From an uncultured Candidatus Saccharibacteria bacterium (GTDB taxonomy: Bacteria; Patescibacteriota; Minisyncoccia; Phycocordibacterales; GCA-2401445): 64,000 bases of DNA. Positions 34,781 through 35,529 of the stretch are shown here, one piece after another; position 1 is the stretch's first letter; each line of letters starts with the position of its first letter. Location: the NCBI GenBank assembly GCA_964436015.1, contig CAYTAR010000002.1, positions 9,521 through 73,520 of the forward strand, in the 5' to 3' direction. The notes beneath the pieces were generated by a model. The model was given only the letters and a program-made list of their open reading frames with translations. It searched no databases and had not been told where the DNA came from. The position numbers and the translations under genes were made by a program.

Positions 34781-34852
34781 GCCCCCGTAGTTCAATGGAT
34801 AGAACCGCGGACTTCTAAGCCGTTAATGTAAGTTCGATTCTTACCGGGGGCA
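34781..34852 (+). tRNA. tRNA-Arg (anticodon TCT)
   Basis: Acceptor GCCCCCG/CGGGGGC, D-arm GTTCAATGGATAGAAC, anticodon loop CTTCTAA, T-arm GTAAGTTCGATTCTTAC; a terminator follows. Confidence 0.8.
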
Positions 34853-34856
34853 CACG

Positions 34857-34890
34857 TACAAAAAACCTCACTTTTTGTGAGGTTTTTTGT
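34857..34890 (+). terminator. terminator after tRNA-Arg(TCT)
   Basis: AAAAACCTCACtttttGTGAGGTTTTTTG. Confidence 0.8.
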
Positions 34891-34901
34891 ACATGCTTTT
34901 T

Positions 34902-35031
34902 GTAAGAATCGAACAAGGAAGGGGTCGGGAAACCTGTCGGTTTCCCGTGGAGGAAGGCAGTGAGGGAGTCTGCGAGCGAGCGTTGGAAAACCGTGGGTTT
35001 CCAAGTGGTTCGATTCTTACCGGGGGCACAC
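34902..35031 (+). repeat. tRNA-associated repeat unit A1 downstream of tRNA-Arg(TCT)
   Basis: Begins GTAAGAATCGAAC (inverted T-arm) and ends GGTTCGATTCTTACCGGGGGCACAC (23-nt direct copy of the tRNA 3' end). Terminator at 35033-35070. Confidence 0.75.
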
Positions 35032-35108
35032 CCAAACAAAAACCACTCATTTCTGAGTGGTTTTTGTTTGGGCATGTGCAAACGGAGCGGTGTGCCTGCG
35101 CACACTGC

Positions 35109-35237
35109 GTTAAGAATCGAAAGCCGGAACATGTCGCTTTGCGACAGTGAGGCGGGGTCGAGAGTACTTTGGATTTTAGAGTGTACTCACGAATAAAATC
35201 CTTAGTAACTCGTGACCGATTCTTACCGGGGGCACAC
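35109..35237 (+). repeat. tRNA-associated repeat unit A2 (third copy of the tRNA-Arg 3' end)
   Basis: GTTAAGAATCGAAagccgg ... GAGAGTAC..GTACTCAC stem ... CTTAGTAACTCGTGACC + GATTCTTACCGGGGGCACAC. Terminator at 35248-35282. Confidence 0.75.
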
Positions 35238-35529
35238 GAGTAACACAAAAAATATCTCCCATATATGGGAGATGTTTTTTGTGTTAGCAAGCAAACTGCT
35301 TTGCATGCGTACTCGTGTGCCGGGCGCAGTGATGTTGCGCGGAGCGCCACGACGCGCAACCACGAGCCGGGGTCGCAAGTACTTTGCAGAATTGGAGCAA
35401 AGCGAACAATTATGCTTAGTAACTTGTGACCACATAGATTTGAGCATTTTCTTGAGCCTGAAAGGCGAAGAAAAATCCAATCGAGTCCCATACGTTATAT
35501 TACACAAGCAAATAGGGTATAATGTCGTG

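Follow-up and report, generated by a model that had tools for sequence, protein, structure and literature searches.

Structured repeat units carrying inverted and direct copies of gene 3' ends behind tRNA, tmRNA and ftsZ genes of Patescibacteria: candidate insertion cassettes

In a 64,000-nt stretch of DNA from an uncultured Candidatus Saccharibacteria bacterium (contig CAYTAR010000002.1, positions 9,521 to 73,520; the whole stretch is referred to hereafter as the window), all seven real tRNA genes (Lys, Arg-GCG, Ser, Arg-TCT, Val, Leu and His) carry one to four downstream repeat units. The flanks of each unit are the reverse complement and a direct copy of the 3' part of the local tRNA, and they enclose a conserved, structured centre. 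The layout, its exact junctions, the structural selection on the centre and the occurrence at the 3' ends of tRNA, transfer-messenger RNA (tmRNA) and ftsZ genes are observations; from these we propose, with a probability of roughly one half, that the units are non-autonomous insertion cassettes that enter the 3' ends of conserved genes, supply a new end with a hairpin and push the old one downstream as a direct repeat. In what follows, X denotes the 3' portion of the tRNA, starting at the T-loop, X' its reverse complement, T a strong hairpin with A/U tracts, and the core the conserved structured segment between X' and the next X.

The array behind tRNA-Arg(TCT) (34781-34853; this gene and all features of its array are on the + strand) was characterized in most detail. 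Its X segment, X1, extends from the T-loop onward and includes two trailer bases (34832-34855). A preliminary description made from the DNA alone had reported three direct copies of this 3' end, each followed by a terminator, and both points were borne out. The 21-mer CGATTCTTACCGGGGGCACAC, common to all three copies, was located by exact search at 34835, 35011 and 35217, with no occurrence expected by chance. The window contains three and only three instances of the 20-mer GATTCTTACCGGGGGCACAC (34836, 35012 and 35218), which matched none of 100 shuffled sequences, and the 24-mer GTTCGATTCTTACCGGGGGCACAC is present at 34832-34855 and 35008-35031 (exact search). A 25-mer starting with GG is found at 35007 only; contrary to that description, the tRNA reads AGTTCG, not GGTTCG. 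Each X copy is followed by a perfect palindromic hairpin of 16-21 bp with an A-tract ahead and a U-tract behind: T1 (34856-34892; 16 bp, -24.5 kcal/mol, z-score -9.6), T2 (35031-35073; 19 bp, -30.6 kcal/mol, z -9.0) and T3 (35241-35286; 21 bp, -29.2 kcal/mol, z -9.3). All three have the stable hairpin and succeeding U-run of an intrinsic terminator; T1 alone was flagged as a + strand terminator in a terminator consensus scan, T2 and T3 being terminator-like by inspection.

Between the hairpins and the next copy of X lie the inverted segments and the cores. X'1 (GTAAGAATCGAAC, 34902-34914) is the reverse complement of tRNA positions 53-65 and pairs to X1 across T1, so that X1, T1 and X' form one long hairpin (34826-34916, -50.6 kcal/mol, z -12.2). 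It is followed by the core of unit A1 (34915-35006; GGGGTCGGGAAACC..GGTTTCCCGTGGAGGAAGGCAG..TTGGAAAACCGTGGGTTTCCAAG), a member of a family termed S2, which has homologues behind other tRNAs, and by X2 (35007-35031), a direct copy of tRNA positions 53-74 plus two trailer bases (24/24 identical). Beyond T2, X'2 (35090-35121) is in two pieces: GTGTGCC, the reverse complement of GGCACAC, is followed by a hairpin, GUGUGC-CUGC-GCACAC, and then by TTAAGAATCGAA, the reverse complement of the T-stem 3' strand and T-loop. A split X' with a CUGC hairpin is also present at locus L090. The core of unit A2 (35122-35217) belongs to a second family, S_A, in its class a form, with helices P1, P2 and a long P3 (covariance model CM R1, 74.4 bits, E 3e-15). 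It abuts X3 (35217-35237), which repeats the tRNA directly, starting at position 56/57 and including two bases past the 3' end (21/21 identical). T3 is followed by hairpin h, which has a CUGC loop (AGCAAGCAAACTGCTTTGCATGCGT, 35286-35310) and recurs as a module at other loci, then by a short class b X'3 (35311-35321; ACTCGTGTGCC, the reverse complement of GGCACACGAGT, which is the end of X3 with the trailer), and finally by a class b S_A core (35322-35431; CM R1, 83.5 bits, E 2e-17; fold z -3.7), which ends in CTTAGTAACTTGTGACC and then ACA. The order of the locus is tRNA with X1, T1, X', S2 core, X2, T2, split X', S_A core, X3, T3, CUGC hairpin, short X', S_A core, ACA.

Several details of the preliminary description can be corrected against this map. 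The inverted T-arm that it placed at the start of each unit is found for GTAAGAATCGAAC exactly as described, but TAAGAATCGAA lies at 35111-35121, one base away from the position given (35110). Of the hairpins it assigned to unit A1, GGGAAACC/GGTTTCCC is present (34927 and 34939) but GGTTTTCC is absent, the actual partner of GGAAAACC (34985) being GGGTTTCC (34995-35002). The motif CTTAGTAACTCGTGACC, attributed to unit A2, is present at 35201-35217, at the end of P3. The X segments of the three cassettes are identical, but among the hairpins T1, T2 and T3, and among the cores, there is no relationship or only a distant one; the array is therefore not a tandem triplication of one unit.

Only one + strand promoter-like site, TTGACC and TAGTAT with an 18-nt spacer and a TG before the second hexamer (34740-34769), lies within ~150 nt upstream of the array, the next (34557-34585) being ~200 nt further upstream; a + strand scan of the array region found no promoter-like sites belonging to the units themselves. 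An open reading frame (ORF) of 207 aa that spans the whole repeat array on the opposite strand, 34868-35491(-), had no Pfam match and overlaps the repeats; it was rejected as a real gene and is probably an artefact of G+C-rich repeats. Repeats of this kind explain the pseudo-tRNA fragments and spurious ORFs, such as this one, in annotations of these genomes.

The S_A family was assembled by an exact scan for the 17-mer CTTAGTAACTYGTGACC, its 3' end, over contigs of one genome per species. This gave at least 115 loci, almost all in Patescibacteria metagenome-assembled genomes (MAGs) of Paceibacteria- and Parcubacteria-type lineages, together with many records labelled Saccharibacteria. The structure was derived with MAFFT and RNAalifold and then built into CM R1, which recovered >140 copies among the matches listed (117 from an initial 100 loci and 27 from the remaining 17), totals in which a small number of weaker matches to the opposite strand of the same hairpins are counted. 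The census counts given below for S_A arrays beyond the window likewise cover loci among the matches listed. P1 is a 3-bp helix (GNC/GN'C) followed by an internal loop with RSA on its 5' side and GA on its 3' side. P2 has an AU bulge and a variable hairpin and is followed by GG, and the long P3 (GGUCGCGAGUACUUAG...CUUAGUAACUUGUGACC) contains a bulged A, a U.U mismatch and a variable hairpin cap. The cores at 35122-35217 and 35322-35431 possess P1, the internal loop, P2, GG and P3.

In the alignment of 117 matches, which was fitted to CM R1 itself and thus favours the figures, 95.0% of base-pair positions were paired, as compared with 29-46% when partners were shifted by one to three columns; changes on both sides were seen in 16 of 22 pairs, and the observed values were reached in 0 of 500 shuffles. 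The covariation was already visible in the independent MAFFT/RNAalifold run. Because the family has conserved G.U pairs, only the tRNA-sense strand folds. As judged from these alignments, S_A cores are under strong structural selection on the tRNA-sense strand. A same-strand tRNA was found within 400 nt upstream of 84 of 123 non-overlapping S_A copies, those with no upstream tRNA call lying mostly at locus edges. When tRNAs of the same genomes were taken irrespective of the seed, 18 of 74 had S_A behind them. A kissing contact of the CUNC hairpin loop with the S_A internal loop was considered and rejected, as the two do not covary.

The S2 core of unit A1 (34915-35006) is not matched by CM R1. 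Its homologues found by blastn (L090, 84%; L097, 82%; L058, 74% identity) are in other MAGs, behind tRNA-Arg(GCG) in two cases and tRNA-Pro in one, each flanked by the local X' and X. The conserved 23-mer TTGGAAAACCGTGGGTTTCCAAG was then searched against metagenome loci, with upstream tRNA and tmRNA genes called by ARAGORN. It was present at 73 loci, in 34 of which it is preceded on the same strand by a tRNA of one of many types or, once, by tmRNA; most of the others are short contigs. The S2 layout is GGGGUCGGGAAAC..GUUUCCCGUGGAGGAAGGCAG..hairpin..UUGGAAAACCGUGGGUUUCCAAG, the core at 34915-35006 aligns throughout with 37 other members, and 7 of the 8 pairs of helix Pa (CGGGAAAC/GUUUCCCG) covary. 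S2 and S_A share the start GGGGUCG. A third scaffold, S_B, is found behind tRNA-Lys and tRNA-Arg(GCG) in the window and recurs elsewhere.

Two further observations concern S2. At L158:1001-1097 and at L186 the core is in the opposite orientation and abuts the 3' end of a convergent tRNA, so that a real tRNA serves as one of the two inverted arms; this suggests that an S2 core may invert between X and X', or insert in either direction. The 23-mer also occurs in a recurring non-tRNA context, ..GGCGAAGCCCG-23mer-ACGCAGYGRGTGRAAACGA.., at L128, L131, L140, L148, L159, L162, L163, L172 and L183, none of which has an Rfam match. This context may be another element or RNA that shares the S2 3' hairpin module.

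The junctions between units and tRNA sequence are regular. Class a S_A units are followed on the right by tRNA sequence from position 57 onward and are preceded on the left by its reverse complement, which extends down to position 54. Class b units have their right boundary at the discriminator (position 73) and their left one at about 71; on the left they carry, in reverse complement, the trailer and 2-4 nt of the acceptor end, and nothing of the tRNA is copied beyond the discriminator. The class b hairpin that separates tRNA and S_A has a constant length of 46-48 nt, starts at the discriminator and carries a conserved CUGC loop. Its outline, CAC-AAAGCG..A-run..stem..CUGC..stem..U-run..GCUUUGUG, holds across Glu, Arg, Val, Leu and Lys tRNAs. 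X' is a perfect complement of X where the tRNA has G.U (Leu, AGAGG versus GGAGG in the tRNA; Val, GAGGG versus GGGGG), and it contains the reverse complement of the T-loop. These two properties led us to reject the idea that X' is a degenerate tRNA 5' half. Past the tRNA end, X' carries on with the complement of the trailer instead of TGG, and the idea of a primer-binding site was rejected on these grounds. Taken together, these properties indicate that X' was templated on DNA or on a primary transcript rather than on mature tRNA. No coreless X'-X pairs were found, the gap between the arms being always at least 59 nt. Insertion of the core into a pre-existing X'-X palindrome was therefore rejected. 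Of 13 arrays, nine preserve the X' nearest the gene better than the distal one, and only one preserves it less well.

The layout is not confined to tRNA genes. S_A is found behind tmRNA at L045:6800-7601, L086:7166-7767, L070:3380-3929 and L089:6830-7623, and the S_A and S2 units behind tmRNA (including L141) lie between an inverted and a direct copy of its 3' end. S_A also lies directly behind ftsZ in at least seven MAGs (L005/L034, L081, L003, L087, L105, L109 and L106; e.g. L081:1120-1560). The proteins encoded there contain GGGTGTG, which we take to be the FtsZ signature, identifying them as FtsZ. At these loci X is coding sequence, namely the last codons of the gene (..AVPAFLRRSKLK; ..DDWGAVPAFLRRSKLK), and a hairpin across the stop codon is followed by X', S_A and a degenerate direct copy of the ftsZ end. 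Because a protein gene has no tRNA-like end, a rationale based on tRNA processing cannot apply there.

This bears on the suggestion of the preliminary description that the direct copies are processed like tRNA 3' ends. Units A1 and A2 are each closed by a predicted X'/X helix, acceptor/T-stem-like, around the core, and the predicted fold of A2 has -67.3 kcal/mol (z -7.2). To this extent the proposed tRNA mimicry is present at tRNA-Arg(TCT), and the pairing makes recognition by RNase P or RNase Z conceivable there, but the mimic is not conserved across the family. Processing of a tRNA-like fold is possible for this locus only, as judged from the modelled helix, and would not be a general account of the pattern. 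In a fuller form, the units would be genuine small RNAs made by read-through from the tRNA promoter and given defined ends at the X'/X mimic through cutting and capping by RNase P, RNase Z and the CCA-adding enzyme. Complete units do fold in a tRNA-like manner (z -7.2 and -7.7), with an acceptor-like helix and, around the core, a T-stem-like one, hairpin h lying at the 7/5 boundary; the covariation of the cores is RNA-like, with conserved G.U pairs that work on the tRNA-sense strand only; and in some right-hand X copies the differences from the tRNA are transitions compatible with wobble pairing to X'. However, at least 12 paired X'/X bases are kept in only 16 of 44 units, the acceptor parts often being lost. 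Mismatches in the X'/X helix (P0) show no strand or wobble bias (G.T 3 versus A.C 3), and distally there are no compensatory changes. Class b units lack any mimic, and all units lie behind strong hairpins with U-tracts and have no promoter of their own that we could find. Together with the ftsZ loci, this makes a small-RNA origin unlikely. The ftsZ layout, the loss of arms, the class b units with no copy and the missing promoters point instead to junction duplications, and on the sequence evidence the X copies look like target-derived duplications rather than evolved processing signals.

Some arrays contain protein genes. Pfam searches of the cargo identified Ham1-like, GIY-YIG and ASCH proteins and an SDH protease with an XRE-family regulator. 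At L051 the order is tRNA-Glu, unit, X, a gene for a 205-aa Ham1-like protein, X, hairpin and S_A, the cargo being bounded by tRNA-end repeats; at L004 two genes lie between GGGGTCAC tRNA-end repeats. Other cargo is present at L099, L018, L049 and L103.

We infer from these features an insertion origin, an order of events and a part for the core in the insertion step. A cassette would consist of X, T (with or without cargo), X' and a core, the core being S2 in the first cassette of the tRNA-Arg(TCT) array and S_A in the second; the third would carry S_A in the form that abuts the discriminator rather than the T-loop. The gene would be entered either within the T-loop (between positions 52/53 and 56/57) or else at the discriminator (72/73). 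The cassette's own X and hairpin would become the working 3' end and terminator of the tRNA, and the previous 3' end would be displaced downstream as a direct repeat that is then free to decay. Repeated entries together with local tandem duplications could build the arrays. The cores would be the conserved, single-strand-folded end of the elements and, the cassettes being non-autonomous, the inserting activity would be supplied in trans. Were a cassette circular, pairing of X with X' would give a dumbbell whose two ends are the hairpin and the core. Such a dumbbell has the geometry of integron attC sites and CTX-type hairpin attP sites. Insertion in this manner would explain why each X has a different hairpin, why distal copies decay, why the landing sites are conserved single-copy genes and how cargo comes to ride along. 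The regular junctions, the tmRNA and ftsZ layout, the cargo, the better-kept proximal X' and the absence of coreless X'-X pairs count in its favour, as does the variable presence of S_A behind unselected tRNAs.

An explanation with no element at all would have template switching at terminator hairpins give the inverted copies, and slippage the direct ones. X-T-X' is indeed a single long palindrome centred on the terminator loop, small palindromes are nested within the array (35090-35105), and recent tandem duplications exist (the tRNA-His array; L031 and L046). Such events would hardly give the same junction positions over dozens of tRNA types and genomes, nor do they account for cores that are conserved, covarying families and that are never missing from an X'-X pair. 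We consider this very improbable.

Several observations weigh against insertion cassettes. No excised form, empty site or strain-level polymorphism was observed, and when cargo genes and the ORFs next to the arrays were searched with Pfam, no linked transposase, integrase or other recombinase was found. A cassette that bears X is specific to one tRNA, so that spread to ~20 tRNA types needs a retargeting that is unaccounted for, and the cassette mechanism does not account for the templating of X' either. The median identity of S_A copies is 0.656 within a genome and 0.653 between genomes, and S_A subtypes follow tRNA identity (Arg, Glu) across genomes. Both fit prolonged vertical inheritance under selection; this would be in line with a function for the host and is not what a non-autonomous mobile element usually shows. 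The constant class b hairpin suggests a function beyond insertion, and CUGC-loop hairpins are conserved inside X' exactly at the acceptor/T-stem boundary, a position that hints, on the modelled fold, at a tRNA-shaped structure with a role of its own. The equal medians also led us to reject concerted evolution of S_A within genomes, there being only a tail of near-identical pairs. Such pairs at different tRNAs (Leu versus His in the window, 84%; L086 versus L095, 98%), together with an apparently chimeric copy behind tRNA-Leu (38839-38949), indicate occasional recent copying or gene conversion.

Host function is the substance of another explanation, in which S_A and S2 are cis-acting 3'-end modules, as RNA or single-stranded DNA, that serve termination, transcript stability, 3' maturation or the handling of replication-transcription conflicts, the X and X' copies being by-products of module duplication. 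The long-term structural conservation with compensatory changes, the subtypes that track tRNA identity and the hairpin of constant length starting at the discriminator are all in keeping with it. So are the association with highly expressed conserved genes (tRNA, tmRNA, ftsZ) and a bias of G.T over A.C mismatches in X-T-X' hairpins (9 versus 1), a sign of selection for folding as a single strand. Yet only about a quarter of unselected tRNAs have S_A, one tRNA can bear several different cores, which makes the module dispensable and redundant, cargo genes lie within arrays, and the downstream direct copy is left unexplained. We regard host modules as distinctly unlikely. The even divergence, the CUGC hairpins in X' and the strong structural selection argue that the cores are more than passive ends.

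If insertion is correct, a more far-reaching version of it can be offered tentatively, and we hold it to be doubtful: S_A, S2 and related cores would be the folded ends through which cassettes recombine, in a system that extends across the Patescibacteria, has no known counterpart and chooses its sites by means of the inverted target copy that each cassette carries. Very small elements, shaped as hairpins or dumbbells, would insert at the 3' ends of conserved genes (tRNA, tmRNA and ftsZ) and rebuild them, targeted by nucleic-acid pairing or by tRNA-like shape and carrying small cargo. The result would be an integron-like capture of genes, with tRNA T-loops as docking sites and the enzyme supplied in trans.

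Rfam 15 returned only the tRNA and chance microRNA-type matches on the hairpins for 34600-35700 (up to E = 10; perfect hairpins) and for 38450-39050 (up to E = 1). At gathering thresholds no Rfam 15 family matched the cores in the window or at seven S2 loci, and the riboswitch, ribozyme, intron and TnpB/IscB guide-RNA families did not match the cores. Full-text literature searches found no description of these elements. Comparison of orthologous loci was limited by the nearest antiporter homologue, 71% identical, being on a 1.3-kb contig, and by the loss of synteny at 57% identity. A Xer-type motif was present in only 2 of 116 loci, unlinked to arrays. Neither Xer nor GIY-YIG genes are associated with arrays, and both were rejected as the linked enzymes. 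No Y1 or TnpB ORF appeared in cargo, no tyrosine recombinase was found near arrays, and no intI/attI platform was found at the loci covered.

These results bear on two further explanations. Arrays could be remnants of integrase islands or prophages at tRNA 3' ends, with attL/attR as the repeats and leftover arms as the cores. The inserted DNA is flanked by direct repeats of the tRNA 3' end, the junctions are at the classic T-loop and 3'-end sublocations, and tmRNA is also targeted. Against this, no integrase adjoins any of >100 arrays, the units are only ~200 bp, and att arms are characterized neither by inverted copies nor by cores that covary as RNAs do. Phage and plasmid records had no blastn match to the query, and the sole viral 17-mer match is due to chance, CM R1 failing at that locus; a phage or plasmid origin was rejected accordingly, and descent from islands is very improbable. 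Alternatively, the units could encode guides of the TnpB, IscB or bridge-RNA type, with X or X' as a guide to the tRNA gene. A scaffold followed by an 18-20-nt target-matching segment resembles TnpB guides, and matching to a target is typical of such systems. But no Rfam guide-RNA family matches, linked genes for a nuclease or recombinase are absent, X is the complement of X', a guide made of X would have the cell cut its only copy of the tRNA gene, and the putative guides decay. We judge this extremely improbable.

The remaining arrays of the window contain further examples. CM R1 finds 10 S_A copies in the window, all behind tRNAs and none elsewhere in the 64 kb, and CTTAGTAACTYGTGACC occurs eight times as compared with 0.27 expected, always just downstream of a same-strand tRNA. 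Behind tRNA-Leu, two S_A units (38633-38740 and 38839-38949, +) are accompanied by inverted and direct copies of the Leu 3' end. In the second, the base of P3 is mispaired, and the copy looks chimeric: its P3 5' strand resembles the tRNA-Val copy while the 3' strand is canonical, possibly a trace of recombination between copies. The tRNA-His array (42145-42890, +) contains a two-unit block tandemly duplicated with a 373-nt period, with S_A at 42381-42489 and 42754-42862 and S3-type units (42225-42330 and 42598-42703) that are 100% identical. On the - strand, two S_A units lie behind tRNA-Val (36819-36938 and 36584-36659), two divergent ones behind tRNA-Ser (30368-30569), an S_B-type unit with an S_A 3' fragment behind tRNA-Arg(GCG) (24116-24240) and a sister S_B unit behind tRNA-Lys (19340-19445). 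The heptamer GCGAAGC is present 11 times in the window (4.5 expected), seven of them inside units and always on the tRNA-sense strand (e.g. 36921, 38644, 38775, 38850, 42391 and 42764). It recurs in S_A apical loops and in the right-hand X of many S2 units. As DNA, GCGAAGC forms a very stable mini-hairpin.

Apart from the arrays, the window contains a SAM-I riboswitch at 28250-28349(-) (64.1 bits), upstream of the ORF 26991-28175(-), and a 2073-aa ORF at 50444-56665(+). A 'tRNA-Pyl(cta)' called by ARAGORN at 57968-58043(-) lies inside the ORF 57680-59365(+), gets no call from the Rfam tRNA model and is probably a false positive.

Patescibacteria genomes are very small, yet several hundred bases behind every tRNA in the window go to these modules. 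Two covarying element families with hundreds of public copies and no Rfam entry are worth describing whatever their function. If they are mobile cassettes, they would show gene movement in a phylum with few known mobile elements, and a mode of DNA insertion in which the end of the target is copied both directly and inverted. As RNAs, they would form a large unexplored class tied to the expression of tRNA, tmRNA and ftsZ.

The nearest known kinds of element share part of this layout, and each departs from it in at least one defining property. Integrative elements in tRNA and tmRNA genes reportedly use integrase sublocations at the T-loop and the 3' end. Islands of this kind resemble the cassettes in entering the 3' part of a gene, supplying a replacement end, keeping the displaced end as a direct repeat and accumulating in tandem, and they also enter protein genes at the 3' end. 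The arrays have the direct repeats and the T-loop and 3'-end junctions of islands but no integrase in the element, and they differ from them in the ~200-bp size of the units, the inverted copy of the target end, the covarying core and the lack of anything similar in phages and plasmids.

Two structured RNA or intron systems are also tied to tRNA genes. Theta (HDV-like, hepatitis delta virus-like) ribozymes are reported beside phage tRNAs (PMC10879173) and so share with the units the position of a structured RNA family next to tRNA genes. The units are unlike them in that they have no Rfam ribozyme or HDV-like match, are separated from the tRNA by a hairpin, are chromosomal and also lie behind ftsZ. 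The tRNA introns of the same phylum are likewise selfish or structured RNA elements tied to tRNA genes, but they interrupt the gene in the anticodon loop, whereas the elements described here are downstream of an intact tRNA and have no intron-model match.

Repetitive extragenic palindromes (REP), the bacterial interspersed mosaic elements (BIME) that they form and the palindromes of IS200/IS605 have in common with the arrays alternating repeats, two kinds of linker, a location at gene 3' ends, non-autonomy and imperfect hairpins with a bulge and a mismatch. Unlike REP/BIME, the arms here are copied from the neighbouring gene, the target is duplicated and no RAYT/TnpA gene was seen. With respect to IS200/IS605, the left flanks vary (TCGAA, TTGAA, TGTGA, TGTGC), the target is again duplicated, and the cargo contains neither Y1 nor TnpB.

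The order X, cargo or T, X', core, X corresponds to the attC order R' remainder, cargo, R'', structured centre, R', and X'-core-X has an attC-like topology with strand-specific pairing, the sequence being compatible with a DNA as well as an RNA fold. As in integrons and CTX-type hairpins, the predicted folding is strand-specific, cargo is optional and the recombinase would act in trans. The arrays differ in having no intI/attI platform that we could find, in a T-loop GTTCGAA that is only loosely like GTTRRRY and departs from it at RRR, in long, target-gene-specific arms, in a central core that is conserved in sequence and in folding of the sense strand. Insertion targeted to gene 3' ends is a known kind of event; the two structured families are apparently undescribed, and there is a real chance that the logic by which they insert is new.

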